Source of the DNA: an uncultured Planctomycetia bacterium
GTDB taxonomy: Bacteria; Omnitrophota; Gorgyraeia; 1-14-0-20-64-10
Reading direction: 5' to 3'
Assembly: GCA_964597545.1 (NCBI GenBank)
Contig: CAZQXN010000006.1
Coordinates: 13,695 to 77,694, forward strand
Length of the DNA stretch: 64,000 nucleotides
The notes below the pieces were generated by a model that did no database searches, had not been told where the DNA came from, and worked only from the letters and a program-made list of their open reading frames with translations. A program made the position numbers and the translations under genes. This document shows, piece after piece, positions 1-28,720 of this stretch. Within the stretch, counting starts at the first letter, position 1. The number at the start of each line of letters is the position of its first letter.

Positions 1-369
1 GTAGGTGTTGCGATGGTGTTCTTCGGCGGAGCATGGGGCAGCATTCGAATGCTGCTTTCCCGCTTCATCTTCCTGACCAACGGTATTTTTATCCCCCTTG
101 AGGCGCTCCCGGAATACCTGAAGATGTCGGCCTATGCCTTTCCGTTGACGCATGCCTTGATCTTGGCGCGATCGGTTGTCTTTCCGGTGCCGGCAGGAGA
201 GATTGTTCGGGCCGGCGTTGTACTGTGTGTGATGACCCTCTGCCTTTTTGCTTCGGCCTGGGGGGGTCTTGTGGCGCTGCAGCTTAGGGTCCGCCGGGCC
301 GGGGGAGACTTGGGTGAAGACACAAAGGAAACGCTTTTAGCCAGTGAAACCTCCGCAGAAACAGGATAA
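1..369 (+). CDS. ABC-2 type transporter permease, C-terminal fragment (gene begins upstream of the window)
   Basis: Open frame from base 1. Hydrophobic TM-rich C-terminus (IFLTNGIFIPLEALPEYL...AFPLTHA) resembles ABC-2/Wzm-type permease ends. Confidence 0.4.
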   Translation, partial: VGVAMVFFGGAWGSIRMLLSRFIFLTNGIFIPLEALPEYLKMSAYAFPLTHALILARSVVFPVPAGEIVRAGVVLCVMTLCLFASAWGGLVALQLRVRRAGGDLGEDTKETLLASETSAETG

Positions 370-1933
370 AGAGCTTTTTGTTTGCGGCCCGGTCGGCCCG
401 CGGGGCCAGCGGGTCCAGGCGTGCCGGGCCTTTGGAACAAGCATGCTGCCCCTTTTCCGGTCCGGAGAAGAGCTTTGGGTTGAACCGGTAGATCCACCCA
501 CCGTCCGGATAGGGGAGATTGTCAATGCCGTGGTGCGTTTGGGTGGCGGGCAGGTGACCGATCCGGATCCCGAGCGCGTGGTGACACACCGCATCATCCG
601 GCGCCTTCACATCAACGGGCAGCTTGCGTTTTTGACCAAGGGGGACAACCGCCCCATGTTTGATCCCATGATCCTTCCGGGACAGATCACCGGCCGCGTG
701 ACTCAGGCCGGTTCGAAGGTGTTAACCCGCCCTCACTGGCGCTGGCTGGGTGTGGTTATTGCCTGGTTTTCTTACCACAAGGCCCTCATGCATTACGCCT
801 TTTGCCACATCACGTATTGCCGGCCCAACCAAATCCGGCACCACTGGACAGTCAAGGGCTGGATTCCGAAGGTGTCCATCCGAGGCGCTCTCCGGCGCTT
901 CAGGTTTTTTCTCCGGAGCGGGGGAACTGGGCGTCGAAACCGGTTGCCGAATCACAGGAAGGAAAATCTTCGAGGCGGCGGCATCCCGATGCGTGTCCGG
1001 CTGTGCTCCCCGAATGATTTGCAATCTCTGGTACGGGTTTGGAATGAGGCTTTCCCGGATTATCCCACTGATGCGGACCGCCTTCAGGCAAGGTTGTTGG
1101 CTTCCCTCTGGTTTGATCCTTTCGGGTCTTTTGTCGTGTGCCGGAATGGGGAGATATTGGGTTGGGCGGCAACCTCGATGCGCTTGGAGCGGCCGCGATT
1201 CTCCGGTGCGGGGAAGTTGGAGTTTGTGGCGCTGACGAAAAAAGGGTGTCAGATCGGCGCAGCGGAACTGCTCCTGGAGCGGGTATTATTGATGTTCGAA
1301 CGCCGGCGAGTGTCGTCCATTATTTTGGGTCCTATGCCAAATGGGTCCCAAAGGGCAGAGCCGGCGGAGCGCTTGGCTGCCTCGACCAGACGGGCCAACT
1401 TCACCGTGCGTAAGGCATGGGTGGAGATGGTCTGTTCCGGTCAGCAGCGCCGCCCTGACCGAGACGAGTATCTTTCCCCGGGACTCGTCGTCCGGCCCTG
1501 GCGGCCGAGCGATTGGAATGGGTTTGCGGCCAGTTTTGAAGATGACCCAGCTGACCTGGGCCGGATTCGGCGCCACCTCTTATTTAGGGGTCGGGCAGAG
1601 CAGCTGCTGGTTGCGCGGCGCAACCGAAAGCCGGCCGGCTTGTGTCAATGGTTGCCGGATACGGGAGTGGTGGACTATAGCCAGGCGGGGAATCCCTGGG
1701 TGGTGGCTCAGCCGGGTTCCGAACGGGCCTACATGTTTCACATCGATGCAAAGGGTGTTTTCCGGGATGAGGACGCCGCTCGAGCATTGGCGCACCAAGC
1801 TTGCTCAAACGCTTTTGCCTTAGGGTGCAAGGAGGCGGTTTGCTGGACCCCGACCCCCGCTCTCTTTGAGCCCATCGGTTTTACCCAACGAAATACCTTC
1901 GTAGAGATGGAACGTCTGGCCCAAACCCTTTAG
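344..1933 (+). CDS. S24/S26 (signal-peptidase/LexA-like) peptidase domain fused to tandem GNAT acetyltransferase-like domains
   Basis: N-terminus SMLPLFRSGEELWVEP...HRIIRR...TKGDNRPMFDP is S26-like (GDNR motif). C-terminal two-thirds are GNAT-like (VWNEAFPDYP...ILGWAA...) and paralogous to CDS 2969..3994. Confidence 0.5.
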   Translation: MKPPQKQDKELFVCGPVGPRGQRVQACRAFGTSMLPLFRSGEELWVEPVDPPTVRIGEIVNAVVRLGGGQVTDPDPERVVTHRIIRRLHINGQLAFLTKGDNRPMFDPMILPGQITGRVTQAGSKVLTRPHWRWLGVVIAWFSYHKALMHYAFCHITYCRPNQIRHHWTVKGWIPKVSIRGALRRFRFFLRSGGTGRRNRLPNHRKENLRGGGIPMRVRLCSPNDLQSLVRVWNEAFPDYPTDADRLQARLLASLWFDPFGSFVVCRNGEILGWAATSMRLERPRFSGAGKLEFVALTKKGCQIGAAELLLERVLLMFERRRVSSIILGPMPNGSQRAEPAERLAASTRRANFTVRKAWVEMVCSGQQRRPDRDEYLSPGLVVRPWRPSDWNGFAASFEDDPADLGRIRRHLLFRGRAEQLLVARRNRKPAGLCQWLPDTGVVDYSQAGNPWVVAQPGSERAYMFHIDAKGVFRDEDAARALAHQACSNAFALGCKEAVCWTPTPALFEPIGFTQRNTFVEMERLAQTL

Positions 1934-1948
1934 AGAGAGGAGCGCGCC

Positions 1949-2239
1949 ATGTCTCGGCAAGGCTTAAGCAAGGATCTTTGTCCGCGCAGGGCAGAGAACA
2001 TCATCTGGAGAGAGGTCTCCGGCAAGGGGATCTTGATCAACCTGGCCGACGGCGCTTGCTTTGAGGTCAGCCCCATGGGTCTTGCGATCTGGAAGCAGTG
2101 CGATGGCAAGGCTCCGGTGGGCGCAATAGCAGAGCGGATGGGACGTCGGTTTCACGTCAGTCCCAAGCGTGTTATCGAGGATGCTGGAAGTTTCTTAAAG
2201 CAGCTTAAGCGGCAGAAGATGGTTGCTTTCGGAGGGTAG
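1949..2239 (+). CDS. PqqD-family protein (RiPP recognition element-like peptide chaperone)
   Basis: 96 aa with WREVSGKGILINLADGACFEVSPMGLAIWKQCDG....IAERMGRRFHVSPKRVIEDAGSFLKQL, a typical PqqD/RRE pattern. Confidence 0.7.
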   Translation: MSRQGLSKDLCPRRAENIIWREVSGKGILINLADGACFEVSPMGLAIWKQCDGKAPVGAIAERMGRRFHVSPKRVIEDAGSFLKQLKRQKMVAFGG

Positions 2240-2241
2240 GG

Positions 2242-2964
2242 GTGCCGCTTCATTCCGGTTCTGTTCGCGTTTCAGTCATCATGCCGGTTTTTAACGCTAA
2301 GCGCACCATTGATGAAGCCATCCGGTCGGTCTTGGGGCAGGGCGGTGTTGCCTTCGAGCTGCTGGTGGGAGATGACGCCTCCAGAGACTCAAGCTGGAAG
2401 CAGATTCAGGCCTATCAGGGCGAGAAACGGCTGAGGGCCTGGCGGTTTCCTAAGAGACTGGGGGCTGCTCGGGCGAGGAATGCTCTGATTGCCAGAGCTC
2501 GGGGGTTGTACTTGGCGATCTGCGACGCCGACGATTGCATGTTGCCGAGTCATCTGCGCAGACTCTCCAGGGTTTTGGACTGCAGGCCCCAGGTAGGGGT
2601 CGTCCACGGGGATCAGGAGCTCATTGGCCCCGCTGGGCGCCGGCTCGAGCGCAAGCGGGTTGCCAAAGATCCACAAGAAACCTGGGACCTCCTGGAAGAC
2701 ATCGGCTGCCATGCCGGTTCCATGCTGCGCAGGTCGCTCGTCAGGAAGGTGGGGGGGTATCGTCCTTATCGTCTTGCTCACGACTACGACCTTTTTCTCC
2801 GCCTCGCCGAAGTGACCCAGTTTTATGTTACCAAGGGCCGGCCCACCTACTGCCGGCGCAAGCTCCCCGGTTCTTTGAGCGGCGCTCCAGAGGACAAATC
2901 TGCGCTTCTTCGCATCTGGCGGGATGCCATATTCAGGCGGTACGGTGTGCGCCTGAAGTGGTGA
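2242..2964 (+). CDS. Family 2 glycosyltransferase
   Basis: VSVIMPVFNA...ELLVGDDASRD...ICDADDCMLP (DxD) GT2 signature. GTG start with GGAGG 6 nt upstream. Paralogue of 4150..4872. Confidence 0.75.
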   Translation: MPLHSGSVRVSVIMPVFNAKRTIDEAIRSVLGQGGVAFELLVGDDASRDSSWKQIQAYQGEKRLRAWRFPKRLGAARARNALIARARGLYLAICDADDCMLPSHLRRLSRVLDCRPQVGVVHGDQELIGPAGRRLERKRVAKDPQETWDLLEDIGCHAGSMLRRSLVRKVGGYRPYRLAHDYDLFLRLAEVTQFYVTKGRPTYCRRKLPGSLSGAPEDKSALLRIWRDAIFRRYGVRLKW

Positions 2965-2968
2965 GTCT

Positions 2969-3994
2969 GTGCAGCCTGAAGAGAAATCCATGAGCGCAAG
3001 CGCTTTAAAGCGGAAAACCAACAGAGAGATCCAAATCCTCCCCTGGCGTCCCGAATTCGTCGAACCGATGGCTCTGCTCTGGAACCAGGCCTTCCCCCGG
3101 GATCAGGTTTCTCCGGATTATCTGGTACAGCGGTTGTTTGGGTCCAAGTGGTTTAACGCGTCAGGGTGTTGGGCGGCTTGGCGCTCCGAGGAGTGCCTCG
3201 GATGGATTCTTGCGACGCGGCGCAGCGGCAACCGGGCAGGGCATCGCACGAAGGGGTATCTTGAGGTTTTGGCGGTCAATGACGAAGGACTTCGGCAAGA
3301 CGTTGACGGCGCGCTCATCCGAAGTGCCTTTTCTTGGTTTCGCGCCCAAGGGGCATCGGTTGCTTGCCTGGATTCCCTTCCGGTTTCCGGGGAGCAGGCA
3401 GAGCAGTGCACCTCTGCTTTGATTCAGCGGCTGGAGGCGCGTGGATTTCAACGGGCCGGCCTGCTCTGGGATTTGGGACTGACCCCAGAGAGGCAGGCTG
3501 TACGCAAAAAGGAACTGGCCCAAGGCCTTACCCTTCGCCGGTGGCAGCCGGAAGACGACGGACCGCTCACAGAGATGTTTCGACGATCCGGATGGATGCG
3601 GTTCGCGAGGCGGTGGGCCGGCTGCCGGCGGGATCCCACTTACGCGAAGGACCCGCAGCAGATGTGCGTTGCTGCGATGGAGGGCCATCCCGTGGGATTT
3701 TGCCAGAATTTGCTGAGCGATCAAATCAAAGATTACAGCGTGCTGGGCAGATGGGTTGCATCCGCTACAGAGGGAGGCAGCGGTTTTCGCCCGGTTGGAT
3801 ATCTGCTGAATATGGTGGTGGATCCTGCTTTCCGCGGCCGCGGGATAGGGCGGGCGCTGTTTCTTGAACAGTGCAGCCGTTTGTTTGCGTTAGGCGCTAA
3901 GGAAATCCGAGGATGGGCTCCGCGCCCCGCTTTCTACCGGAAGTTCGGCGCCCGTCTGCGCGGTGCCTTTCTGAAGATGGAGGTCCCGCTGTAA
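2969..3994 (+). CDS. Tandem-GNAT N-acetyltransferase family protein
   Basis: Two GNAT-like halves (second ends ...VVDPAFRGRGIGRALF..). N-terminus is paralogous to the GNAT part of 344..1933. Confidence 0.6.
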   Translation: MQPEEKSMSASALKRKTNREIQILPWRPEFVEPMALLWNQAFPRDQVSPDYLVQRLFGSKWFNASGCWAAWRSEECLGWILATRRSGNRAGHRTKGYLEVLAVNDEGLRQDVDGALIRSAFSWFRAQGASVACLDSLPVSGEQAEQCTSALIQRLEARGFQRAGLLWDLGLTPERQAVRKKELAQGLTLRRWQPEDDGPLTEMFRRSGWMRFARRWAGCRRDPTYAKDPQQMCVAAMEGHPVGFCQNLLSDQIKDYSVLGRWVASATEGGSGFRPVGYLLNMVVDPAFRGRGIGRALFLEQCSRLFALGAKEIRGWAPRPAFYRKFGARLRGAFLKMEVPL

Positions 3995-4149
3995 ACGGGT
4001 TACAGCTACTCTGAGCCGAACGTTGTGACCTGGCGGAGATTTCCGAGACGTTTTAGGGTAGGTTTCTGGTAACGTTTTCGGGGTGTTGCGTTCTTTTCTT
4101 TGGTTGGCTTGACCTTTTTCTTCATATTGAGGATACAGTACAAGATCCC

Positions 4150-4872
4150 ATGAGTGGTGTCAAGATCTCTGTCCTGATGGCTGCCCGAAATGCTGAGGCG
4201 ACTCTTGAAAAGGCTGCTCAGTCGGTTCTGGCCCAGCGGGGGGCCTCCTTTGAGCTCTTGATCGGGGACGATGCTTCCACAGACGGCACCTGGGATTGCA
4301 TTCGGCGCATCAGGCGGGATCTCCGGGTGCGGGCGTGGCGTTTTCGGAGGCACCAGGGGGTGAGTGTCACCCGCAACCGGCTGATTGCACGTGCTGCCGG
4401 GCGGTATCTTTCAATCTGCGATGCCGATGATCGCATGCTGCCGGACAACCTCAGGCGGCTTTCGGCTGTTCTGGACCGACGGCCTCAAGTGGGTGTGGCG
4501 TACGGTCGGATCCTCCTTGTGGATGAGCGCAGGAAGGGTCCGCCAAAAACATCCATTTTGTCCACCGGATTTCTGGGTGATTGGGATCTGCTGGGTTTTT
4601 CGATCCCCAACGGCGCAGCAATGCTTCGCAAGAAACTGGTGCAACGGGTGGGCGGCTACAATCCCAAGATCTCATTTGGAGGGGATGGTGACCTGTTACT
4701 GCGGTTGGGGGAGGTGACGCAATTCCGGGACCTGGGGGGTAAGCCGGTTTATCTGTACCGCCGACGCCACGGATCTGTCACGGATCAATCCCGCCAAGCC
4801 CGCAAGCAGGTCGCCCAGGAGACCCTCCGTAGGACGATCCTCAGGCGCTATGGAGTGCGGGTGACCTGGTAG
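4150..4872 (+). CDS. Family 2 glycosyltransferase (paralogue of 2242..2964)
   Basis: ISVLMAARNA...ELLIGDDASTDGT...ICDADDRMLP. About 45% identical to the first GT2 by eye. Confidence 0.75.
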   Translation: MSGVKISVLMAARNAEATLEKAAQSVLAQRGASFELLIGDDASTDGTWDCIRRIRRDLRVRAWRFRRHQGVSVTRNRLIARAAGRYLSICDADDRMLPDNLRRLSAVLDRRPQVGVAYGRILLVDERRKGPPKTSILSTGFLGDWDLLGFSIPNGAAMLRKKLVQRVGGYNPKISFGGDGDLLLRLGEVTQFRDLGGKPVYLYRRRHGSVTDQSRQARKQVAQETLRRTILRRYGVRVTW

Positions 4873-4877
4873 GGAGG

Positions 4878-6626
4878 TTAGGCTCTCAGGCGCTGCTTGG
4901 CCCGCCTGAGGAGCCGGTCAGTATCTTGCCTGCGCCAGGGAGATAAATGTGAAGCGCTCTCCGGGTATCTGCGCCAGAGGTAATGCATCTCGCGCGGTAG
5001 CGCCATCATCCGAGCGTTGCGAGCGATCTTTAGGCCTAAGTCATAATCCTCAGAGGTCATCAGCGTTTCATCATATCCGCCGGCTTTGAGCATCGCCTCT
5101 GTTCGAATGAGCGCTCCTGCGTGCGCAATGACGTTGCGCTCCCACTCCTTGCTTCCATCTACTCGCTCCGCCCGCTCCACCCCCAGCGGAGTGCCGGTTT
5201 CATCCACCCTCAACCGGTTGGCATAGACCCACCCCACACGGCGGCGGGTCTCCAGGAACGCGACCATACGCTTAAGATGCGAGGGGAGCATGATGTCATC
5301 GGCATCGCACACGGCGATGTACTTGCCCCGGGCTTCCCCCAGGATCCGGTTGCGCGCCGCGGCAATCCCCATCTGTCTTGGGTTTTGAAGGAATCGGACG
5401 CGCGGGCTCCAGAGATAGCTGCTGGCGATTTGAGCGGTTCGGTCAGTGGAACCATCATCGACAATCACCAGCTCGAATTGCTTAAACCGCTGTGCCAGAA
5501 CCGACTCAATCGCTTCGGCAATCCAAGGCTGCATGTTGTGCGCGGTCATCATGACGGTCACCAGAGTTTGAGCGGGTGCTGTGGGATCCATTCGCTGGAT
5601 CAGTCCGCGCCGGCGCAGCAGCGCCAGCTGCTTGCCCGCACCATTGCGGAACGCAGCGCCATCGCTTAAACCCCTCCAGAGTTCCAAACCCCGGGGGTCC
5701 GGCCGGAAGATCTCAAGGTCGGACGATCGGACCAGAAGGGTTTCTTGGTCTGAGCGCATCGTAAAGCCCGATCGGATCCACCCGGGGGTTTCTCTTTTGC
5801 GCGGGGCGCTGACACCGATCTGGCGTGAGCGCGCTCTTCGCAGCGGAATCTTCCGGTTTAGCCAGGCCAGGAGTTTTTGATAGTCGGCGGGGGTGTTGTA
5901 AAGGGGTGTGCCCCATTTCTGCACAAAGAACTTCTCAGAGGTTTTGACCAGCCGGCGTCGATGTTCAGACGGTGCCGATCCGCTTCCCTTGTGATGCACA
6001 AACAGAGAATGCACCCGAACCAAGCGGTAGCCGGCAAGCCTGAGCTTGAGAGAATAATCAATGTCCTCTACGCCGAAGAAGTAACCTTCGTCGAAAAGCC
6101 CGACGCGGGCCATGACGACCTTTGGGATGAGCAGGCAGAAGCCGAACAGGTAGGGCATGGTTTCTAAGCGGTTTTTGCCCCACCGCTGAAAGAGCTGATC
6201 GGCCAGCGTTGTTGAGGCTTCATTGGCCGGAAGTCCCTTCGGAGGCCAGTCCCATTTGAAGCAGTGGATGTGTTGCGAGGTGGGTCCGGCCGCCCCCACG
6301 CCCGGCTGTTGAGTAGCCCCCACCAGGCGCTCAAGCCATCCGGGAGGGACCAGGACGTCGCTGTTAAGGAAGCAGACGTATCGCCCCCGGGCTGCAAGGG
6401 CCCCCTGGTTGGCGGCCTTAGCAAAGCCTGCGTTGCCCCTATTTTGAATGACCCGGATCTCAGGAAAGGCCCGCAGGGTTTTCTGAATACCTGGGCTGCG
6501 GCTGTTGTTGATGACGATCAGCTCATAGGGGACCGAGGTGTTGCGGATGACCGATCGCAGGCAGGCCCGGGTCAAGTTTGGGGTGTTGAGGGTAATGACG
6601 ACAATCGAAACCAGTGGAGGGGGCAT
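4878..6626 (-). CDS. Two-domain family 2 glycosyltransferase
   Basis: Two GT2-A modules: VSIVVITLNTPNL...ELIVINNS... and VTVMMTAHNM...ELVIVDDGSTDRT...CDADDIMLP. Confidence 0.7.
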   Translation of the reverse strand: MPPPLVSIVVITLNTPNLTRACLRSVIRNTSVPYELIVINNSRSPGIQKTLRAFPEIRVIQNRGNAGFAKAANQGALAARGRYVCFLNSDVLVPPGWLERLVGATQQPGVGAAGPTSQHIHCFKWDWPPKGLPANEASTTLADQLFQRWGKNRLETMPYLFGFCLLIPKVVMARVGLFDEGYFFGVEDIDYSLKLRLAGYRLVRVHSLFVHHKGSGSAPSEHRRRLVKTSEKFFVQKWGTPLYNTPADYQKLLAWLNRKIPLRRARSRQIGVSAPRKRETPGWIRSGFTMRSDQETLLVRSSDLEIFRPDPRGLELWRGLSDGAAFRNGAGKQLALLRRRGLIQRMDPTAPAQTLVTVMMTAHNMQPWIAEAIESVLAQRFKQFELVIVDDGSTDRTAQIASSYLWSPRVRFLQNPRQMGIAAARNRILGEARGKYIAVCDADDIMLPSHLKRMVAFLETRRRVGWVYANRLRVDETGTPLGVERAERVDGSKEWERNVIAHAGALIRTEAMLKAGGYDETLMTSEDYDLGLKIARNARMMALPREMHYLWRRYPESASHLSPWRRQDTDRLLRRAKQRLRA

Positions 6627-6632
6627 CGCTCG

Positions 6633-7607
6633 TTAAACCAGCCGCTTGAGCAGCGCAGGAATCTGCGCCAGATGTCGGTTGCTGTAGTGCAGATGATAGG
6701 CCCGAACCTGCTGAGCCAGTCGCTCAAAGACACCTAAGCGCTGACGGGCGATTTGGGTCCACGGATCGTTCTGGAACCAAGCAAAGTGGCTGTCCTCCAA
6801 AAGCCAGCGCATGGCAGAAGTCGAACGGACCGCTGACAGCCACAGCGGTCCTTGGGGACGGTATTTGGGGAAGAGCAGGATGCGTGGTTGGCAGGTTTGC
6901 GCGATGCGCTTGGGCCAGATCGATTGCGCCGAAAAGATCAGCCGCTTGGCCGAAGAGGTTTTCAGCAGCGATTGCAGTTCCGGAAACCGCTTGGCCACAG
7001 GCCGGTCCAGCCGGATGCGGCGGGGGAAGGCATGCGCGGCGATGCGGTTGCCCTTTTTGGAGAGAATCGGCATCTCATCCGTCAGGAATGAGAAACCGGC
7101 TTGCAGCCCACACAAGCTCAAAGCTGTCTTTCCGGAGCCGCTGTCCCCGACAATCAAGATGCCATCGTTGCCCTTGGCCACACAGGCGGCATGCAGGAAG
7201 TACATGCTCCGCTGCTTAAGCCACAGGCTTAAGGGTTGCGTGACCAGATAGTGGTATCCGGGATCCGGAAGCCAGGCTTCATCCGGAACGACGGCTGCTT
7301 GGATGCGCCGTTTCTTCAAGTCCTGGATCACGGTAAAGTTGCTGGAAAGCTGACGGGTGATAACGCGTCCGACTGCCGGCTCGCTCAAGATCAGCTCCCG
7401 GTAAGGGGCGAAGTCGGCCGGCACTCCGTCTTGGGCTGCGGAGGCGGGCAGGGCTGAGACGCTCAACCGCACGGCACTTCGACTGCCCCCGTTAGACCGC
7501 TTTCCGGCGCGAAACCACTCCAAGTCCGCCATCAATGTATTGAAAATCATCGGATGGTCGGAAGTGAATTCGATGGGTAAACCGTGTATGTTGAGATGAG
7601 TTTTCAT
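6633..7607 (-). CDS. HPr-kinase/phosphorylase-related kinase (HprK C-terminal-like P-loop protein)
   Basis: LHAACVAKGNDGILIVGDSGSGKTALSL P-loop in an HprK-C-like context. This protein family is often found next to PqqD-family genes. Confidence 0.6.
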   Translation of the reverse strand: MKTHLNIHGLPIEFTSDHPMIFNTLMADLEWFRAGKRSNGGSRSAVRLSVSALPASAAQDGVPADFAPYRELILSEPAVGRVITRQLSSNFTVIQDLKKRRIQAAVVPDEAWLPDPGYHYLVTQPLSLWLKQRSMYFLHAACVAKGNDGILIVGDSGSGKTALSLCGLQAGFSFLTDEMPILSKKGNRIAAHAFPRRIRLDRPVAKRFPELQSLLKTSSAKRLIFSAQSIWPKRIAQTCQPRILLFPKYRPQGPLWLSAVRSTSAMRWLLEDSHFAWFQNDPWTQIARQRLGVFERLAQQVRAYHLHYSNRHLAQIPALLKRLV

Positions 7608-7624
7608 GTTTGGTGGAATGTTAA

Positions 7625-7706
7625 TGCCGAGGCGGGGAGTCGAACCCCGACGGCTTGCGCCATACGCTCCTGAAGCGTACGCGTCTCCCTATTCCGCCAC
7701 CTCGGC
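7625..7706 (-). tRNA. tRNA-Leu (anticodon CAG)
   Basis: Reverse complement is GCCGAGGTGGCGGAATAGG...TACGC-TTCAGGA-GCGTA...GGGGTTCGACTCCCCGCCTCGGCA: cloverleaf with long variable arm, anticodon loop TTCAGGA. CCA is not encoded. Confidence 0.8.
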
Positions 7707-7712
7707 AAGAAT

Positions 7713-8318
7713 CTAGAGAAAAGATTCTGCGATTTTGTACTTCCTGTGAAGGCAGGGAAGGCCAGGTCGATAATATATCGCTTTAAGCAGTTGCTGTGAA
7801 GCCTTTTTCGCATACGTCAACTCCCAAACGCGTGAACCGTACCGGATGCAACCTATAATGCTAAGTTGGATTGCCACCATGTAGTTGATCCACTCAAGGT
7901 ATGATCGACTGCAAGAAGAGAACTTGACGTATAGTCGGATTGCATTTGGATAGATACAATCTTGGAACGTACTGATGTTCCCATCACCATCCAGACATCC
8001 TCGTAAAAAGTCGAAGAAGTAGACATTCGGAATCTTCAATGAACCAAGCTGCTTTGATTTGCAGGGCATTAAACCGATGTTTAGAAGCCAGCGATACAAC
8101 TTTACGTTACCAAATTGTACGTGTGGATATCGCCTCGAAGAAAAGCCGCTGCCCTTCCACCCGATTTTGTTTTCCAGGCCGAGGCAGCGCTTAAATGTTT
8201 CAAGTTGTTCCATGTCCTTAGAGGTCAATTCCAAATGCCGACCGTCATTAGAGAGACAGCCATCGGTGGCGATAAGGCCCACTGCATAGGCCAATTCATG
8301 GGACCACTGAATAGACAT
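7713..8318 (-). CDS. Free-standing LAGLIDADG-family homing endonuclease-like protein
   Basis: Two LAGLIDADG motifs (AYAVGLIATDGCLS and FLRGCLDGDGNIS). Sits in a locally AT-rich stretch next to tRNA-Leu. Start taken at internal ATG (MSIQW...); the upstream extension in the ORF track overlaps the neighbouring gene's promoter region. Confidence 0.65.
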   Translation of the reverse strand: MSIQWSHELAYAVGLIATDGCLSNDGRHLELTSKDMEQLETFKRCLGLENKIGWKGSGFSSRRYPHVQFGNVKLYRWLLNIGLMPCKSKQLGSLKIPNVYFFDFLRGCLDGDGNISTFQDCIYPNAIRLYVKFSSCSRSYLEWINYMVAIQLSIIGCIRYGSRVWELTYAKKASQQLLKAIYYRPGLPCLHRKYKIAESFL

Positions 8319-8381
8319 ATGTCTACTATAGTACGAAGGTGTGATTTTACAAAGGAAAAAAGGTGGTGATAAACTGTCTGC

Positions 8382-9239
8382 ATGCGGCTGACGAAGCTCA
8401 ACGACTTGATTCATGACGGCAGGAACATCAACGGCTCCTGGCGGCTTACCCGCAAGCATACGCTGGAGTACCGGCGGGCCGGCAGCGAGGAAGAGGCGGT
8501 CTTAAAGGGTCCACTACTGGAAACTTCGGCCAACCGCCTCACCTTTCGTGTTGCCGAGCAGCGCTTGGGCAATAACCTGGTTGGCCGCCGCTTAAGTTTG
8601 CGGGGTCGGTGGCAGGCTGATGCCGACAACCGTTTGGCCTTCTTGGTGGAACGGCAAGGGGGCCGACACAACTGGCTAACCCTGCAGGGGGCCTGGCAGG
8701 TTGACCCCGGCCATGAGATCGTTTACCGGTTTCACCGGGAAACTCTCAAGACCAAGCTGCGCCGAGAGGGACTGCTGCGGTTTCGGGGAATCTGGGAACT
8801 CTCCGAGCGCCGCCGCCTCACCTATGTCCTGGATGCCAAGACCGATTCCACCTTTCGCTTCCGGGGAACATTTCAATCCCCATCGGTTTTGGCCAAGCAG
8901 GGGAGGATCCGCTATCAGCTTGGGGTCGAAGTTAAAGGTAAAAGCTCCCGCAAGGCCGTCACCCTTTTCGGCAAATGGAAGCTCTCAAGAAGATTGGGGC
9001 TGACCTTTGAGATTCCGTATCGGGGCAGGCGGGCACGTGGAATTGATTTTGGTGCCACCTTCTCGTTGGGCCCTCAGGGGCGAGTGAAGGCCACACTCAC
9101 CACCCGGCGTGGAAAACCCTTGGGGTTAGAGCTGGTTGTTTCCCGGGAGTTTCTTAAAGGGCGGGGGGAGGCCTTTGCCCGGCTGAGACGTTCCCTTAAG
9201 GAGCTTGCCCTGGAGGGGGGTATCAGAATCCGCTGGTAA
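8382..9239 (+). CDS. Hypothetical protein (Arg-rich, beta-rich repeats)
   Basis: Long ORF with coding-like composition and no recognisable family. Confidence 0.3.
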   Translation: MRLTKLNDLIHDGRNINGSWRLTRKHTLEYRRAGSEEEAVLKGPLLETSANRLTFRVAEQRLGNNLVGRRLSLRGRWQADADNRLAFLVERQGGRHNWLTLQGAWQVDPGHEIVYRFHRETLKTKLRREGLLRFRGIWELSERRRLTYVLDAKTDSTFRFRGTFQSPSVLAKQGRIRYQLGVEVKGKSSRKAVTLFGKWKLSRRLGLTFEIPYRGRRARGIDFGATFSLGPQGRVKATLTTRRGKPLGLELVVSREFLKGRGEAFARLRRSLKELALEGGIRIRW

Positions 9240-9308: not shown

Positions 9309-9761
9309 GTGGAAAGCATTTTGATCGCCAAAAACCCATCTGCCGGAAGAGATTTCCACCTCCTGGAGAGCTGGGAGGCCGGCATTGAGCTGAAGGGCTC
9401 AGAGGTCAAATCGCTCAGGGCCCATCAGGTCAACTTAAGGGACAGCTTTGTCCGGATCGAGGGGGGTCAGGCCTGGCTGTATGGCATGGAGGTCTCTCCC
9501 TACCCGCAGTCCGGACGGTTTGCCCCGGAGCCCAAGCGGCAGCGCCGCCTCCTGCTTCACCGTGCACAGATTGAGCGCTTGGCAGGGCAGGTGGATCGTA
9601 AGGGTTTTGCCCTTATCCCGACCCAATTGTATTTTAAGGGCTCCTTGGCTAAGGTGGAGCTGGCCCTGGCCAAAGGCAAACGCTTCTTTGATAAGCGCGA
9701 AACCATCAAGAAGCGGGAGACCGACCGCGAGATTCAGCGCGCCTTAAAGCGGCGCATATAG
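9309..9761 (+). CDS. smpB: SsrA-binding protein SmpB
   Basis: ...GIELKGSEVKSLRAHQVNLRDSFVRIEGGQAWLYGMEVSPY...LLLHRAQI... is canonical SmpB. The tmRNA gene follows immediately. Confidence 0.85.
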   Translation: MESILIAKNPSAGRDFHLLESWEAGIELKGSEVKSLRAHQVNLRDSFVRIEGGQAWLYGMEVSPYPQSGRFAPEPKRQRRLLLHRAQIERLAGQVDRKGFALIPTQLYFKGSLAKVELALAKGKRFFDKRETIKKRETDREIQRALKRRI

Positions 9762-9767
9762 TTCTTT

Positions 9768-10171
9768 GGGGGCGACTGGTTTCGACTGAAGTGACTGGGT
9801 CGAACGTCGCGTGCCGAGGTGGTCCGGAGGCCTCGTAAAAAACCGGACAAAATGATACGTGCCAAAAATATGGTCAAGGGGATCGCCCCGGTTGTGCCGA
9901 TGAGGCCTGCCGTGGTCCCCATGGCACTGGCTGCGTAAAAAACGCAACCCGTCCTCCAGTCAACGCCTGCTAGATTGGATGGACGTCGCCAGCAGGCTGG
10001 CTTAAGTCCAGTACCTCTGGGGGCTTGGGCGAGGAAACCAACCAGGGGGTAGTCGATGCCTTGATCCTGTCCGTGGGAGCGGGCGTCGGCGAAAACCAAA
10101 TCACGGACTACGCACGTAGTGACTCGATTTTCAGCTGCTTCGGCACGAGAGTTCGAATCTCTCCGCCTCCA
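9768..10171 (+). ncRNA. ssrA: tmRNA (SsrA)
   Basis: 5' GGGGGCGACUGGUUUCGAC... and GCCUCGUAAAAAACCGGACAAAAU resemble the E. coli tmRNA 5' region. Internal tag ORF ends ...MALAA-TAA. 3' tRNA-like T-arm GAGAGTTCGAATCTCTC plus acceptor CGCCTCCA pairing with the 5' end. Confidence 0.8.
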
Positions 10172-22720: not shown

Positions 22721-25700
22721 ATGAAGAAAGTGAATGTCTCTTTTTTGAAACGAACCCAGCCTCTTTTTTTAACGATCCTCTTGGCCAGCTTTGTTCTGAC
22801 CCAGCCTGCTTTTGCCCTGCGCGCCAGTGGTGTAGATGCTAGGGGGCAAAAAACGGTACGCTCAGGCTTGGAAGAAACGCTTAAACGGGCCGGAGCGGCG
22901 GCCCGGGCCGGGAATCCGGATGCAGCGCTGGAAGCCGGCGCCTCTGCTGTTGGGCAATTGGCCAGCGCAGCCGGACTCCTTCCGGTAGCCCCGAAGCCCC
23001 CTGGTTTCGCCACCGGCCTGGAGGAAGACGCAGTGGCTGATTTGGACCAAGCCATCTCATATCTTCTGCGCGATCCCGAGGACCCGGACTTGGTGAATGT
23101 GAATGATTTGCTGGCCGAGAAAAATCCAACTGATCTGGCGAAAGGGTTCAGGCTGGCCGCGGCTATTCTTGGCAAAATGACGAGACTCCTCGATGAAGAA
23201 ACGATGGAAGTGCTGGAGGCTTTGATTGCCCGAGGCAAGGAGGAGACCGGCCCGGTATTGAGTGCTGCTTCTGTTGCGGGCGAGGCACTTGAGAGCTTGC
23301 CTGGCAGGGCCGAAGAAGCCAGCTTTGATGCACTCGCTGAGAGATATAAAGCCAGCGGTTTAGAGGAACGGCGGGGCATGACTCGCCGGGAAATGCTTAT
23401 TGGCCTGGCGGCAGCTGGAGCCGGGTTGGCGGTGGGTGTGCCCACGGGAATGTTTCTTCCGAGGTCAGACTCGCCATCGGCCGCTTCTTCGGCTGCACCG
23501 GACGCGGCACAGACAACCCCTGCCCTCACTTGGACCGGTGCGCACTACGAAAAGGGCAGATGGTCTTCTATCGCCTTAACCGGGTACCCTCAGGGTGCGG
23601 TTGCGAGTCTCTGGCGTGCGGAAACAGCACCGCAAGGTCAGCCTCGAAGTTGGGTATTGTTGGGCAGTTCTGATCCCGAGACACAACCCCGATTTGGAGA
23701 GAACGGAAGAGTGGAGCTGAGAGCGGTCCCAGAAGAAATCCCTCTGGAGCCGAACCAGACTCGGATCATAGTCGTCCACGATGTTCAAGCGTGGAACCGG
23801 TTGATGGAGGCATCTGGACCGGAGAACAGGTTAGACGAAACAAGGTTGAACCAGCTCTTGGGGGATCAGGAATTTGTTCAAACAACAGGGTTGAATGTGA
23901 CTGAAATTGCACCCCCAGACGTCAAGTATCTTTCCGCCTTCTCGGTGGAAGCCAAGGTAGACGAACTCCACTATGGACCTTTTGGGGTCGTCCTGCGGTT
24001 GGTCGAGATCCAAGGCGGCTCAGCGGTAGGCGTTTGGCGCAAGCAGAATCTTCCGCACGGACCGGAAGTGTGGAGTTACGACCCGTCGGAAGGATATGAG
24101 GTGGTGAAAGATGTTTGGGCTGGCCGGGGTTCGATACGGCTGGGTGCCAATTGGACAAAGCCCCCACTGCATGCTGGAGAATTTCGTATTGTCATTATGC
24201 CGAATCTCGCCACCTGGGACCACTGGGTGAGATCGGCAAACGAGATGGATGACTTTTCTAACAAGCTTTGGATGTCCACTGAAGAGATGGATCGGTTGGC
24301 TTCCGCTAAGCTTTTTGGGCCGACGACAGCGTTTTTCGTGGTTGAGGTGGGAGACCGGGTGCTTCAGGTTGTCTCGGCGCCACCCGCCGGCCTGGAGGAG
24401 CAGGGAGAAAGCCTGACCTGGAGGGCTTGGATGGCCACGGTGGGTGCTTGGGGGCCTACCAGGAGTTTCCTGAGTCGCGAGGTTATGCCGGCCGATCGAG
24501 CTGCCTTGCGTCGCCAAATCAACGGTCTGCTCAACCGCATGGTTCGGCAAGGGTACGTGGACAATATTCGTCCCATCCTTAAGCATGGGATTCCGGCAGC
24601 GGTCAAGAGCTTAATGCCGATGCAGTTCACTGGTGGGACAGGTTTTGGCGGCGAGCACTTTTACAGCAGGGAACTGGACTGGAACAAGCTGGATTTCGTC
24701 ATGGATTTCCTCTTTGAACTCGGGATTGAGTACCCGAATTGGAGCGAGCTGACGTCTGCGGAACTGGTACAACTTGTCGAGGAGGCCACTCACCTCTACG
24801 AACAGGCCATGGATTACCAAGTGGAAGTCGTCCTGCCGGCGGAAGGCGTTCGTTCTGATATTGAAGCTGCCGAGCGCGAAAGGATGCAGGCAAGAGCAGA
24901 AGCATTAAAGACAAGAGGGTCAGAGGTATTGGAGCACATGTTGTCGGCTGACGAAATTGATGAGGCGGCGACGATAGCCAATTATGAGGAAAAGGATCCC
25001 AATCTCGAAATAAAAAGGCTGCACCGCCACGAGGCTCCTCTTCGGGAAGATCTGGAGAGGCTAGAGGAGGAACTGCGCCAAATAAGCGAAGAGATGCAAC
25101 AGGGGTGGCGGATCCAGCATGTGCGGATTGTTCCCGCCGCCGGCCTGGAGGAAGTGGAAATAGTCTCCGAGCCGATAAGGCAATTCACAGGCCACGGCCA
25201 ATGGGTGTATGGCGTGGCCTTCTCCCCTGACAGCCGATATCTCGCTTCGGCAAGCGCGGACGAGACGGTTCGCCTTTGGGAGGTCAACAGCGGCAGCGAA
25301 GTCCGGCGATTCAAAGGCCATACCGACAGGGCGTGTCGCGTGGCCTTCTCCCCTGACAGCCGATACCTCGCCTCGGCAGGCGACGACAGGACGGTTCGCC
25401 TCTGGGATGTCGCCACCGGCAGCGAAGTCTGGCGATTCGAAAGCCAAGAACAAGGAATGCATATTCATAACATGGCCTTCTCCCCTGACAGCCGATACCT
25501 CACCTCGACAGGCAGCGGCAAGACGGTTCGCTTCTGGGATGTCGCCACCGGCAGCGAAATCCGGAAATTCGAGATCGGCTGGGTGTATACCATAGCCTTC
25601 TCCCCTGACAGCCGATACCTCGCCTCGGCAGGCGGCAAGACGATTCGCCTCTGGGATGTCGACGCCGGCAGTGAAGTCTGGCAATTCGAAGGCGACGACC

Positions 25701-28700
25701 TAATGATGGTGCGTGCCGTAGCCTTCTCCCCTGACAGCCGATACCTTGCCTCGGCAGGCGGCGACAGGACGGTTCGCCTCTGGGATGTCGCCACCGGCAG
25801 CGAAGTCCGGCAATTCAAAGGCCATACCAACTGGGTGTATACCGTGGCCTTCTCCCCTGACAGCCGATACCTTGCCTCGGCAGGGGAGGACAGGATGGTT
25901 CGCCTCTGGGATGTCGCCACCGGCAGCGAAATCCGGCGATTCGAAAGCCACGGCAAAGCGGTGCGTGACGTGGTCTTCTCCCCTGATAGCCGATACCTTA
26001 CCTCGACAGGTGATGGCAACACGATTCGCCTCTGGGAGAGCGGCCTCACCACTACCGGCCTGGAGGAAGGTAAGTCGCCTCGGCCCACCACAGCGCCCAG
26101 CTTCCTGGCGGCCACATTGGAGGCATCCATGGAGCTGGCAAGCGATGGGCCTGTGGCTGTAGCTGATTTGACTGCGGGAGTCAACCAAAGACAGGCTCGG
26201 CAGCTAAAAGAGTCGACTGTGGCAGACCACCTGCATCTGCTGTGGCTTGGCGGAGCCCTAGACAGAGGAGGAAGCACCAAGCGGGACGCAAGATATCAAT
26301 TGGCACGCCGTCCATCGTCAGCCCGCCTGCAAGCTGTTCAGCGCTATCTTAACGGGGCGGCAGGAAGTGCAGTGCGCTACAGCACGCCAAGCGAGCGCAA
26401 AGCGCTTGTTGCCCAACTGCGGAACATTGTCTATACGACGGACGTATCGCGGGCAGCCAAAGCGTACACAGCTGAAGGCGCTGGCGCTGTTCAGACTGCC
26501 GATGACCTGGAGCAGATTGCAGAGGCACTCGGCCTATCCCTTGTGATGCTCAAGCCCGACGCAATCAAGAGGCGACAGGATCGCGCCATCCTGGATTTGC
26601 TTTGGGATGCCAGCAGAGTGCAGATTGTATACATAGGCCAACAGGTTGCGTTGGACCAGGAGACCCAAATAGAGCCCTTTTATGAAGAGCACAGGGAGAA
26701 AGTCTTCTTTCAGGTCCTTCTCGACTACATCGGCGGCGGGGAGGTCGTTCCCATGCTGGTGAGGTCTACAGCCGCCGACGAATCTCCGATCGACCACATC
26801 GCCCGCATTATCGGGCCCACCAACGGCGGCTTTGACAGAGTGAACCCAGCGTCCAGCACCCCGCAAGGCATACGGGGCGCATTGATGAGCGCTCGGGACA
26901 TCAGCTCTGACCCCAGCAGATTCCCGACAACCAACAGAATTCATCGCTCATCCGGCACTTATGCAGATGTCGTCCAAGAAGCCGGTCTCGCCTTTGGCGG
27001 CACAGAGGCGCTGGCGCAGATCGTAGCTGCCCGTGTCTTAAAGATACAGCCCCCCGAACTCGCCTCCGGCCAGGAGGAGGGGGAGACGATGTTCGACCCT
27101 AGGTGGGCTGGGCTACTGGAGCAGTATCGCCTTGAGAGCGTTGAGGAGTTAAGGAGCAATTTGCTCCGGGCATTTACCGATCCGAGCTTTGCGTGGCTCA
27201 CCCCTAAGATGCTCTGGCAAGCGTGGCTCTATGATGAGGAGCGAGGCTTTGATGAAGCTGGCGAAGCGGTGCACATATGGTCTTATGAGGATATAGATGG
27301 TGCTCTCGAGGGATATGCACTTGGCCAGCGGGTTGAGGTGTATCCGGTCAGCACCAGCGAGGTGCGGATTGATATTTTATCCCCCTCCTCACATCCAGGT
27401 GCGCGACCAGTGGGCACCTCTAGCACTGCTACCGTGGGAGAGATAGGTCCCAAGCTGCATGCAGCATTCACCAACTCCCATCCGCGAAGTGATAGTCGGC
27501 TCACCCCAGGGTCGTTGCAGGGGATCGCATTTTACGATGACACACGCCCTATGCAGTATGGTACTCACTTTGTGGCGGATATAACCGACAGGACTAGCTT
27601 GAGAGATGTTCTTGAACAGTATCAGTCCGATCAGCCCGTTACACTCAGCGTGACGGGTAAGCATAAGCTGGCGCTTACAATCATATCCGCCTCCGGCCAG
27701 GAGGAGGGGAAGATAGAAAGGGAAATAGAGGAGGTGAGGGAAAGGCTTGCCGTTGTTAATCATCAACTTGCGCTGGCGAGATTTGTCAGGGCTGAGACGT
27801 TTATGGATCCAGAGCCTAGGTTGCCAGAAGAATCTGCAGAGTTGGACGAGCAATGGCACGTTTTGGTTGGCGACCTAAAACGTCTTCGGCAGGAGCAGCG
27901 AGCTCAGGAGATGGGACTCACCAGCCGGACCGGCCAGGAGGAGGGGGTTGCCAAACCTTTAAGCGAATTGCGGCCTTCACGCTACCTGAGGGACGATTGC
28001 CTTGTTGATTCGAATGCTGGAACAAAGGTGTTTCTGGTTTCCAAAAATCAGCGCGGGTCAGAAGACGTGAGTTTGATAAACATAGCTACACGGGACCCCC
28101 TGGCGTTGCCGGTCCTGATGCTGAAAAAATATCACGTCCTCCGCAGAAGGGCCTCCGGCCAGGAGGAGGCGGTGCGGCAAGCCGCACATGCGTACCTGGC
28201 TCAACCCGGGGTTTTGGAGCAGCTGGATGCTGCAGGTGGCAGCGTGCTGCTGAATTCAGCGGCTGCGCGGCGGTTGCATCCGGCAGCAATGGCGGCCACC
28301 TTGACGCGGGCAGGTGCACCTGCCGGCGTTGAAGAGCCCCCCGGCTTGGTCCTTTCAGACAGCAATCTCATCCCCCAGCGCAACCCTGCGTTACGGAATC
28401 TAGCTATGGTACCGCTGGGCTCCAGCTGGCAGGATGTCGAAAACGCCATCCAGCAGGCCAGCCCCTTTGACTTAATCTTGGTTGAAAAGGAAGCTGGACT
28501 ATCCCCGGAGGTGGTTGCCGCGGCTTTAAGCCAAGCCTTTGGGCAAGGGCCCTCGGCCCGAGCAGTGCTGGCAGATCCCCAGCAGATCGAACTCATTTCA
28601 GCCCAGGCCCTCTATGAGGTCTGGACCGACCAGAGCTTGCCCAAGGTGGTGGCCCTGGGGATCTTTCTCCAGATTCAGACTAAGGCCGGAGAGACCTTTA

Positions 28701-28720
28701 ATCTCGCCATCTGGATGTAA
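22721..28720 (+). CDS. Giant secreted modular protein A (1999 aa): Sec signal peptide, Ala-rich N-region, coiled coil, about 8 WD40 repeats, C-terminal modules separated by [AS]GQEEG motifs
   Basis: N-terminal signal peptide (LFLTILLASFVLTQPAFA). WD40 repeats (FSPDSRYLASAG.DRTVRLWDVATGSE). Recurrent GLEE/GQEE punctuation at module boundaries. Confidence 0.7.
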   Translation: MKKVNVSFLKRTQPLFLTILLASFVLTQPAFALRASGVDARGQKTVRSGLEETLKRAGAAARAGNPDAALEAGASAVGQLASAAGLLPVAPKPPGFATGLEEDAVADLDQAISYLLRDPEDPDLVNVNDLLAEKNPTDLAKGFRLAAAILGKMTRLLDEETMEVLEALIARGKEETGPVLSAASVAGEALESLPGRAEEASFDALAERYKASGLEERRGMTRREMLIGLAAAGAGLAVGVPTGMFLPRSDSPSAASSAAPDAAQTTPALTWTGAHYEKGRWSSIALTGYPQGAVASLWRAETAPQGQPRSWVLLGSSDPETQPRFGENGRVELRAVPEEIPLEPNQTRIIVVHDVQAWNRLMEASGPENRLDETRLNQLLGDQEFVQTTGLNVTEIAPPDVKYLSAFSVEAKVDELHYGPFGVVLRLVEIQGGSAVGVWRKQNLPHGPEVWSYDPSEGYEVVKDVWAGRGSIRLGANWTKPPLHAGEFRIVIMPNLATWDHWVRSANEMDDFSNKLWMSTEEMDRLASAKLFGPTTAFFVVEVGDRVLQVVSAPPAGLEEQGESLTWRAWMATVGAWGPTRSFLSREVMPADRAALRRQINGLLNRMVRQGYVDNIRPILKHGIPAAVKSLMPMQFTGGTGFGGEHFYSRELDWNKLDFVMDFLFELGIEYPNWSELTSAELVQLVEEATHLYEQAMDYQVEVVLPAEGVRSDIEAAERERMQARAEALKTRGSEVLEHMLSADEIDEAATIANYEEKDPNLEIKRLHRHEAPLREDLERLEEELRQISEEMQQGWRIQHVRIVPAAGLEEVEIVSEPIRQFTGHGQWVYGVAFSPDSRYLASASADETVRLWEVNSGSEVRRFKGHTDRACRVAFSPDSRYLASAGDDRTVRLWDVATGSEVWRFESQEQGMHIHNMAFSPDSRYLTSTGSGKTVRFWDVATGSEIRKFEIGWVYTIAFSPDSRYLASAGGKTIRLWDVDAGSEVWQFEGDDLMMVRAVAFSPDSRYLASAGGDRTVRLWDVATGSEVRQFKGHTNWVYTVAFSPDSRYLASAGEDRMVRLWDVATGSEIRRFESHGKAVRDVVFSPDSRYLTSTGDGNTIRLWESGLTTTGLEEGKSPRPTTAPSFLAATLEASMELASDGPVAVADLTAGVNQRQARQLKESTVADHLHLLWLGGALDRGGSTKRDARYQLARRPSSARLQAVQRYLNGAAGSAVRYSTPSERKALVAQLRNIVYTTDVSRAAKAYTAEGAGAVQTADDLEQIAEALGLSLVMLKPDAIKRRQDRAILDLLWDASRVQIVYIGQQVALDQETQIEPFYEEHREKVFFQVLLDYIGGGEVVPMLVRSTAADESPIDHIARIIGPTNGGFDRVNPASSTPQGIRGALMSARDISSDPSRFPTTNRIHRSSGTYADVVQEAGLAFGGTEALAQIVAARVLKIQPPELASGQEEGETMFDPRWAGLLEQYRLESVEELRSNLLRAFTDPSFAWLTPKMLWQAWLYDEERGFDEAGEAVHIWSYEDIDGALEGYALGQRVEVYPVSTSEVRIDILSPSSHPGARPVGTSSTATVGEIGPKLHAAFTNSHPRSDSRLTPGSLQGIAFYDDTRPMQYGTHFVADITDRTSLRDVLEQYQSDQPVTLSVTGKHKLALTIISASGQEEGKIEREIEEVRERLAVVNHQLALARFVRAETFMDPEPRLPEESAELDEQWHVLVGDLKRLRQEQRAQEMGLTSRTGQEEGVAKPLSELRPSRYLRDDCLVDSNAGTKVFLVSKNQRGSEDVSLINIATRDPLALPVLMLKKYHVLRRRASGQEEAVRQAAHAYLAQPGVLEQLDAAGGSVLLNSAAARRLHPAAMAATLTRAGAPAGVEEPPGLVLSDSNLIPQRNPALRNLAMVPLGSSWQDVENAIQQASPFDLILVEKEAGLSPEVVAAALSQAFGQGPSARAVLADPQQIELISAQALYEVWTDQSLPKVVALGIFLQIQTKAGETFNLAIWM
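25190..26040. repeat. Seven or more tandem near-identical about 126-bp DNA repeats encoding WD40 blades
   Basis: GCCTTCTCCCCTGACAGCCGATACCT(C/T)GCCTCGGCAGG recurs at 25217, 25343, 25474, 25595, 25721, 25847 and 25973 with over 90% identity. Confidence 0.8.

Follow-up and report, generated by a model that had tools for sequence, protein, structure and literature searches.

A candidate pathway for a very short ribosomal peptide in an Omnitrophota-like bacterium, and its likeness to the polyphosphorylated peptide clusters of Bacillota

Described systems and the cassette that resembles them

Linear Polyphosphorylated Peptides (LPPs), encoded by the genes lppA, lppK, lppB, lppS, lppD and lppN of Paenibacillus alginolyticus, are a recently described family of peptides that are ribosomally synthesized and modified post-translationally (RiPPs; Popov et al., Nat Commun 2026, PMC13381572). 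Here we describe a cassette at the left end of a 64,000-nucleotide stretch of contig CAZQXN010000006.1 (positions 13,695 to 77,694, the whole of which we refer to as the window), from an uncultured Omnitrophota-like bacterium. We put at about 0.72 the probability that the cassette encodes an LPP-like RiPP pathway acting on a 39-amino-acid (aa) peptide encoded within it at 4006-4125 on the reverse strand.

In the LPP pathway the leader of the precursor LppA is presented by LppB, a RiPP recognition element (RRE), to the peptidase LppS, which cuts after Thr(-1) in an LppB-dependent manner and is inactivated by each of the substitutions S29A, H68A and D93A. The kinase LppK polyphosphorylates Ser3 of the LppA core, and Tyr is not accepted there. 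LppA carries Y12 and T27 and has a core of 45 aa; LPP precursors range from 35 to 200 aa. The clusters sit within capsule loci in Bacillota, the phylum to which they are said to be restricted; their final products were not identified and a role in biofilms was suggested. The supplement lists a similar peptidase from Candidatus Brocadia, which was not studied there (PMC13381572).

Three further systems share individual components with the cassette. Lasso peptides (paeninodin, PadeK; pseudomycoidin, PsmK/PsmN; Bsf) have a YxxPxL...T leader motif bound by a PqqD-type B1 protein, and in phosphorylated members an HprK-like kinase acts on a C-terminal Ser (PMC6993621, PMC10368454); in pseudomycoidin phosphorylation is followed by hexosylation (PMC6993621). 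HPr-rel-A is an uncharacterised pairing of a kinase (TIGR04352) with a PqqD chaperone (TIGR04353), on which our literature search found no paper. In mycofactocin biosynthesis (MftA/B/C/E/F) a PqqD-like RRE binds a scaffold peptide from which nothing but the final few C-terminal residues ends up in the product, and MftF, a family 2 glycosyltransferase (GT2), glycosylates the released small molecule.

The components of the cassette are as follows (strand in brackets).

1-369 (+): C-terminal portion of an ABC-2 permease truncated at the window edge, the likely exporter (Pfam ABC2_membrane, 20.5 bits, below cutoff)
344-1933 (+): fusion of a signal peptidase I of archaeal type (S26, SpI-like) with a tandem GNAT acetyltransferase, 529 aa (TIGR02228, Pfam GNAT, AlphaFold)
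1949-2239 (+): discrete PqqD-family RRE, 96 aa (Pfam PqqD, 48.6 bits)
2242-2964 (+): GT2a, short soluble GT2, 240 aa (Pfam, 92.9 bits)
2969-3994 (+): free-standing tandem GNAT, 341 aa, with an intact motif A, RGRGIG (Pfam Acetyltransf_1, 53.7 bits)
4006-4125 (-): candidate precursor peptide gene, 39 aa, MKKKVKPTKEKNATPRKR-YQKPTLKRLGNLRQVT-TFGSE (motif scan)
4135-4163 (-): putative precursor promoter, with -35 TTGACA (4163-4158), a 17-nucleotide (nt) spacer and -10-like TACTGT (4140-4135) (cross-locus conservation)
4150-4872 (+): GT2b, short soluble GT2, 240 aa (Pfam, 80.4 bits)
4878-6626 (-): dual-domain GT2 with two GT2 stretches, 582 aa (Pfam, 197 bits)
6633-7607 (-): HprK-related P-loop kinase, 324 aa (TIGR04352, 48.9 bits)

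An earlier, sequence-only reading of the window had listed the enzymes of this cassette, and every one of them was recovered with the same boundaries from the open reading frame (ORF) listing and by Pfam and NCBIfam profile searches. It had further taken them for a peptide- or protein-modifying system without an obvious substrate gene. The core of that proposal stands, given a precursor with an RRE-binding motif and the logic of peptidase, RRE and kinase shown for LPP (PMC13381572); its secondary ideas concerning the substrate do not. No short precursor ORF had been seen and it was suggested that the substrate could lie upstream, whereas the 39-aa ORF, with its YxxPxL...T leader motif, sits inside the cassette.

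A small conserved gene and the enzymes around it

The cassette has one sizeable intergenic gap, 156 bp separating the 341-aa GNAT gene from GT2b, and in it lies the precursor ORF. Its product, MKKKVKPTKEKNATPRKRYQKPTLKRLGNLRQVTTFGSE, has a basic N-terminus, then a leader recognition motif, then a C-terminal core of 4-5 residues, TFGSE. The motif, YQKPTL...T, is of the YxxPxL...T type bound by PqqD-type RREs, and its Thr stands at Y+15, the same spacing as in LppA and in lasso leaders. A degenerate back-translation of the motif matched once in the 64 kb, where none was expected on the basis of 100 shuffles.

Scanning the intergenic space of related loci (denoted by L numbers) revealed small ORFs ending ...YQKPTLKRLGNLRQIT followed by 3-5 residues, in every case on the strand opposite to that of the neighbouring genes. 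Ten other loci encode homologous peptides beside a peptidase-GNAT fusion gene or a PqqD gene; named among them are L010, L011, L012, L014 (partial), L016, L017, L024, L025 and L026. The back-translated motif itself matches in seven of the fetched loci, with a variant in L024. No precursor-like ORF was found in the fetched DNA of the kinase-only relatives (L002-L009). A 69-aa ORF upstream of the kinase (7604-7813) was also considered as a precursor and rejected: it is a translation of a tRNA-Leu gene.

Over the 16 codons of the motif, the window and L010 differ by 11 synonymous changes and a single non-synonymous one, and other pairs of loci behave similarly. Because the codon differences are almost all synonymous, the peptide appears to be under strong purifying selection; on several lines of evidence, this pattern of substitution among them, the 39-aa ORF is a real, selected gene. 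The tails that follow the leader vary (TFGSE, TFS, FLS, SMY, SFSSY and SLS) while the leader is conserved, a combination that resembles RiPP cores. The predicted core is about 3-5 residues long in each of the ten complete copies, one from the window and nine from other loci. A Ser occupies core position 3 in FLS, TFS, SLS and SFSSY and position 4 in the TFGSE of the window; in SMY, position 3 is taken by Tyr. The N-terminal half of the peptides is strongly basic throughout, with 10-13 Lys or Arg residues.

When upstream DNA from nine loci was aligned, TTGACA proved invariant, at a distance of about 35-40 nt from the ATG. The promoter of L024 is perfect (TTGACA-17-TATAAT), and across loci the -10 element is separated from the ATG by about 9-13 nt (9 nt in the window), with no Shine-Dalgarno sequence. 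This suggests that the precursor is served by a dedicated promoter giving a near-leaderless mRNA. A scan for consensus promoters and terminators called nothing around the precursor in the window, where the -10 element is weak. The putative window promoter falls inside the 5' coding region of GT2b, and this position, together with the antisense layout, hints that transcription of the precursor and that of the enzymes affect each other.

The peptidase-GNAT fusion comprises an SpI-like domain (residues ~13-125), a helical linker (130-194) and two GNAT domains (216-365 and 381-525), an arrangement reproduced in the AlphaFold model (predicted local distance difference test, pLDDT, 78.5), in which the peptidase domain is rich in beta structure. 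Residues 31-121 match TIGR02228 with 38.7 bits (E 8.8e-10; cutoff 51.85) and include the GTSM, HR, KGD and D motifs. The domain is 25% identical to LppS (E 8e-8), with S33, H82 and D107 opposite the catalytic S29, H68 and D93; all 24 family members examined keep the three residues. No transmembrane helix is predicted and no hydrophobic 19-mer exceeds 1.4 on the Kyte-Doolittle scale, which fits a cytoplasmic leader peptidase and not a Sec signal peptidase. By analogy with LppS, we propose that the fusion is a leader peptidase joined to an acetyltransferase.

The closest solved structures to the tandem GNAT are glucosamine N-acetyltransferases, other tandem GNATs and the mycothiol synthase MshD. 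The acetyl-CoA loop (motif A) of the C-terminal GNAT of the fusion, residues 473-478, reads RDEDAA and is degenerate; 20 of the 24 family members have R-x-x-G-[ILV]-G there. Since RGRGIG is intact in the free-standing 341-aa protein, acetyltransferase activity may be carried by that copy. The two are paralogous (27% identity over fusion residues 223-523, E 8e-29), as are GT2a and GT2b (46% identity, E 1e-60) and GT2a and the C-terminal GT2 domain of the dual GT2 (35% identity), in agreement with the module duplication suspected in the sequence-only reading.

The PqqD gene begins 16 bp after the fusion gene. Its family profile aligns with LppB at an hhalign probability of 96.5% (E 7.7e-10), and the protein matches the lasso_PqqD models of NCBIfam. 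The kinase carries the Walker A sequence GDSGSGKT, and both G-x-S-x-x-GK and D177 are invariant among its relatives. Its best NCBIfam matches, TIGR04352 (HprK_rel_A; cutoff 200) and TIGR04355 (HprK_rel_B; 32.1 bits), are below cutoff, but its profile matches HPr kinase structures (E 3e-5) and the structural model (pLDDT 84) has a fold of the PEPCK/HprK type, for which fold searches returned the generic superfamily and nothing narrower. The kinase-PqqD pairing is that of HPr-rel-A; the window differs in the low kinase score and in a PqqD protein without a TIGR04353 match (NCBIfam, E<=0.01).

The dual GT2 has MftF (TIGR03965) as its best NCBIfam match, recalling mycofactocin, although at 145.7 bits against a cutoff of 280; the radical-SAM enzyme MftC, an MftE-type peptidase and MftD are all lacking, and the sole radical-SAM gene near the cassette is QueE-like and stands among housekeeping genes. 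The conserved linker of the dual GT2 (residues 296-348; 5583-5741, reverse strand) aligns with the PqqD profile (hhalign E 1.7e-4, probability 49%) and also with the N-terminus of the MftF model; Pfam recognises no PqqD domain in it. The linker may be an embedded RRE, which would make the dual GT2 leader-guided. As for the permease fragment, which the earlier reading had already noted, the Pfam match is weak, but full-length homologues, ABC-2 permeases lying directly 5' of the fusion gene, occur in L010, L012 and L024, the last of which also has an ABC ATPase gene preceding the permease.

Close relatives of the kinase are few (about nine among 5.8 billion clustered proteins) and derive from metagenome-assembled genomes labelled Candidatus Omnitrophota or 'uncultured Planctomycetia'. 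Three genes are constant in their loci, those for the kinase, the dual GT2 and a short GT2, usually with the same tRNA-Leu just upstream; genes for GT4, GT9, epimerase, HTTM, deacetylase and GNAT proteins vary. L002 also shares the flanking housekeeping genes of the window, which makes an Omnitrophota-like source of the window very probable. Word-indexed searches with the fusion protein matched the protein itself alone, whereas an exhaustive HMMER search of 1.84 billion representatives yielded about 25 full-length homologues with 24-36% identity. Around these a module recurs that consists of PqqD, a short GT2, the peptidase-GNAT fusion, a polysaccharide deacetylase, a second short GT2 and a distant GT-B protein, often with the addition of NTP_transf_5 (PF14907), methyltransferases, GT4, GT9 and an ABC-2 transporter.

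PqqD adjoins the S26 fusion, or is within two genes of it, in L010, L011, L016, L017 and L024-L027. Orthologues of GT2a (47-60% identity) flank the fusion gene in L011, L013-L017 and L025, and orthologues of the dual GT2 (52-53% identity) lie beside the kinase in L002-L004, L008 and L024. From L001 a fusion gene was predicted just past the deacetylase, and the contig extension (L025) bore this out; a free-standing 341-aa tandem GNAT precedes PqqD there. Both L024 and the L001/L025 contig carry the whole set (kinase, dual GT2, fusion, PqqD and precursor), at protein identities of only 28-53%; precursor, PqqD and SpI-like peptidase remain linked even between loci with proteins just ~30% identical.

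Several variants of the arrangement were observed. In other metagenome proteins the SpI-like domain is fused to a sulfotransferase-like or Kdo-transferase-like domain (P0050, P0052, P0062; L026, 575-2320; L027, 9915-11045), and a PqqD gene again follows. L026 also has an NTP_transf_5-methyltransferase fusion and a precursor ending ...LGNLRQIVSLS. A gene for a lipoate/biotin-ligase-like protein (LplA/LipB) stands beside the system in L024 (10849-11496) and L007 (3970-4560); there is none in the window cassette.

The proposed pathway and its rivals

With the LPP clusters the window shares an SpI-like peptidase with catalytic Ser, His and Asp, a discrete PqqD-type RRE encoded beside it, an HprK-like kinase (a likeness of family and fold), and a precursor whose YxxPx[V/L] motif is followed by a Thr at Y+15 and, within a few residues more, by a Ser. 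Both are embedded among genes for glycan biosynthesis, and the loci related to the window supply an NTP_transf_5 gene of the sort typical of LPP and lasso clusters (in L007, L008, L011, L017, L024, L026 and L027; beside PqqD in L007, L011, L017, L024 and L026). The differences are also considerable. The lineage is Omnitrophota-like and not Bacillota; the peptidase is fused to a tandem GNAT (to a sulfotransferase or glycosyltransferase in other metagenome proteins); the core has 3-5 residues against about 45; the remainder of the leader is lasso-like (LxxxG) instead of VLxHQxIxFET; GT2 enzymes, short and dual, are conserved partners; in place of the MsbA-like LppD there is an exporter of ABC-2 type; and the precursor is always antisense to its neighbours.

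If the cassette is a pathway of the LPP kind, then its steps can be modelled on LppA/B/K/S, paeninodin and pseudomycoidin, on the basis of the domains that the genes encode, a conserved precursor with its lasso/LPP-type leader motif, and co-occurrence across loci. The PqqD protein would bind the YQKPTL...T motif of the leader, and the HprK-like kinase would phosphorylate the Ser of the TFGSE tail, possibly repeatedly. The GT2 enzymes would then add sugars to the phosphate or to hydroxyls, supplementing or replacing the LPP NTP transferase in this lineage. The cytoplasmic SpI-like domain would cut after the conserved Thr to free a modified core of 3-5 residues, a tandem GNAT would acetylate the newly freed N-terminus or an amino sugar, and the ABC-2 transporter would export the result. 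By the same analogy, the product is most likely a very small phospho-glyco-acetyl peptide and not a long peptide.

A number of observations weigh against this interpretation. Every family score of the kinase and the peptidase is below its curated cutoff; the kinase is not seen on most of the short contigs that carry the fusion gene, and is missing from 11.5 kb of L011 sequence. Searches with three family members (tblastn) found no NTP transferase (PF14907, LppN) in the 64-kb window, and an MsbA-like pump is not among the cassette genes scanned (Pfam, NCBIfam), although both might lie to the left of the window. A core of 3-5 residues is without precedent in LPP. The Ser of the window core is at position 4, compared with 3 in LppA, and the Tyr3 of SMY is a residue that LppK does not accept. 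The cleavage site is placed by analogy, translation of the precursor is read from the DNA, and the C-terminal GNAT of the fusion has a degenerate acetyl-CoA loop in this genome.

Were the reading as an LPP-like pathway correct, it would extend to uncultured Omnitrophota-like lineages a RiPP family first published in 2026 that is stated to occur in Bacillota only; our literature search found no other paper describing this variant. It would make the signal-peptidase-type leader peptidase a module that is fused to tailoring enzymes, to a GNAT here and to a sulfotransferase or glycosyltransferase elsewhere. A core this short points to a product nearer to a small molecule derived from a peptide, or to a glycan with a peptide cap, than to a classical peptide, which offers a new angle on the final products that the authors of the LPP work could not identify. 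The set needed for experiments is small and concrete: precursor, RRE, kinase, fusion protein and GT2s.

The alternative that survives best takes the tail of the peptide as a primer. The phospho-Ser would prime an oligo- or polysaccharide built in the cytoplasm, in the role played by undecaprenyl phosphate in ABC-transporter-dependent pathways, after which the leader would be cut and the product exported to the surface or capsule by the ABC-2 (Wzm-like) transporter. The core is indeed too short for a conventional bioactive peptide, every locus is rich in genes for GT2, GT4, GT9, GT-B, deacetylase and methyltransferase proteins, and the exporter is of a type used for glycans; LPP clusters, too, sit in capsule loci, with final products not identified and the biofilm role suggested (PMC13381572). 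The chemistry, however, would have to be supposed by analogy, no polymerase or chain-length regulator was recognised, and the four GT2 domains of the window fit a short oligosaccharide as well as a polymer. We consider this explanation rather unlikely.

A particular form of the same idea, in which the leader would be a reusable handle, the 3-5-residue phospho-Ser tail would prime the glycan, and the fused peptidase-acetyltransferase would release it for export via ABC-2, we hold to be unlikely but worth stating. If true, ultra-small Omnitrophota-like bacteria would have a way of making a glycoconjugate, secreted or bound for the surface, from a ribosomal primer, and a peptide would stand in for the lipid carrier.

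A second alternative is that the cassette belongs to an ordinary surface-polysaccharide locus, in which PqqD, the kinase and the small ORF are incidental and the enzymes act on lipid-linked sugars only. As in glycan export loci of the Wzm/Wzt type, an ABC-2 permease (with an ATPase in L024) stands beside several cytoplasmic glycosyltransferases, and relatives carry epimerase, GT4, GT9, polysaccharide deacetylase and Capsule_synth genes. The sequence-only reading had held that embedding in such a locus would favour plain glycan synthesis. Such embedding is partly seen in the relatives, but it leaves the peptide reading standing because the LPP clusters of Bacillota also sit in capsule loci. The cassette differs from Wzm/Wzt loci in its ribosomal precursor, RRE, peptidase and kinase and in the want of a recognised lipid-carrier priming enzyme: Pfam and NCBIfam searches of the cassette showed no priming phosphoglycosyl transferase, flippase or polymerase, and profile scans of window positions 1-7607, which exclude the left part of the cluster, showed neither a priming glycosyl-phosphate transferase nor nucleotide-sugar genes. 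Given a precursor with an RRE-binding motif under strong purifying selection, kept in the constant company of PqqD and the SpI-like peptidase despite ~30% protein identity, a plain polysaccharide locus is improbable.

It is likewise improbable that the small basic peptide is modified C-terminally but left uncleaved, or is a regulator or antisense-encoded element, with the S26-like domain acting on another substrate. The consistently basic N-terminal half, the invariably antisense gene and a cleavage site placed by analogy would suit such a role; the strictly conserved catalytic triad of the peptidase, and the cutting of its own precursor at the equivalent Thr by the homologous LppS (PMC13381572), would not.

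The sequence-only reading had speculated that secreted giant proteins might be the substrate. Giant ORFs do exist in other parts of the window, three in number, all on the forward strand (22721-28720, 40449-45326 and 58439-63715; 1999, 1625 and 1758 aa). The cassette nevertheless contains a dedicated precursor, related loci have cassette and precursor without giant neighbours in the DNA seen, and leader-motif scans found no YxxPxL...T near the C-terminus of the giant ORFs; we regard their modification by these enzymes as very improbable.

Finally, a phosphorylated lasso peptide of the paeninodin or pseudomycoidin type, to which the lasso register of the leader, Y(-17)...T(-2), the lasso_PqqD matches and the HprK-like kinase would point, is excluded for the window by core length and the missing cyclase: about 2-5 residues follow the leader motif where a lasso needs a ring of 7-9 residues and a tail, the leader peptidase is a serine SpI-type enzyme, no Asn-synthetase-like macrolactam cyclase or B2 cysteine protease is among the cassette genes (Pfam, NCBIfam), and the AsnB-like protein of L011 has no tblastn match in the window.

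Boundaries and neighbouring genes

On the left the cassette is cut by the window edge, and the upstream part of the cluster lies outside the window. The right-hand boundary is a single feature without a functional part in the pathway:

7624-7707 (-): tRNA-Leu(CAG) (ARAGORN)

This tRNA gene lies 17 bp upstream of the kinase start. Because the same adjacency of tRNA and kinase recurs in L002, L007, L008 and L009, the cassette appears to be a variable cluster at a conserved, tRNA-flanked site.

To the right of the tRNA follow a LAGLIDADG-like ORF, a conserved ORF of unknown function, SmpB, the transfer-messenger RNA (tmRNA) gene and housekeeping genes. The LAGLIDADG_3-domain ORF (7713-8459, reverse strand; 32 bits) lies between the tRNA-Leu and the conserved ORF; it has a 68%-identical homologue at the same spot in L008 (9222-9827), is absent from L002, L007 and L009, and may be a free-standing, homing-endonuclease-like mobile gene. 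The conserved ORF (285 aa; 8382-9239, forward strand) has no Pfam or NCBIfam match and is found beside the cluster, with 49-56% identity, in L002, L004, L007, L008 and L009. SmpB and then the tmRNA gene (153.7 bits) occupy 9309-10171, and the predicted tag, AKNMVKGIAPVVPMRPAVVPMALAA, is unusually long.

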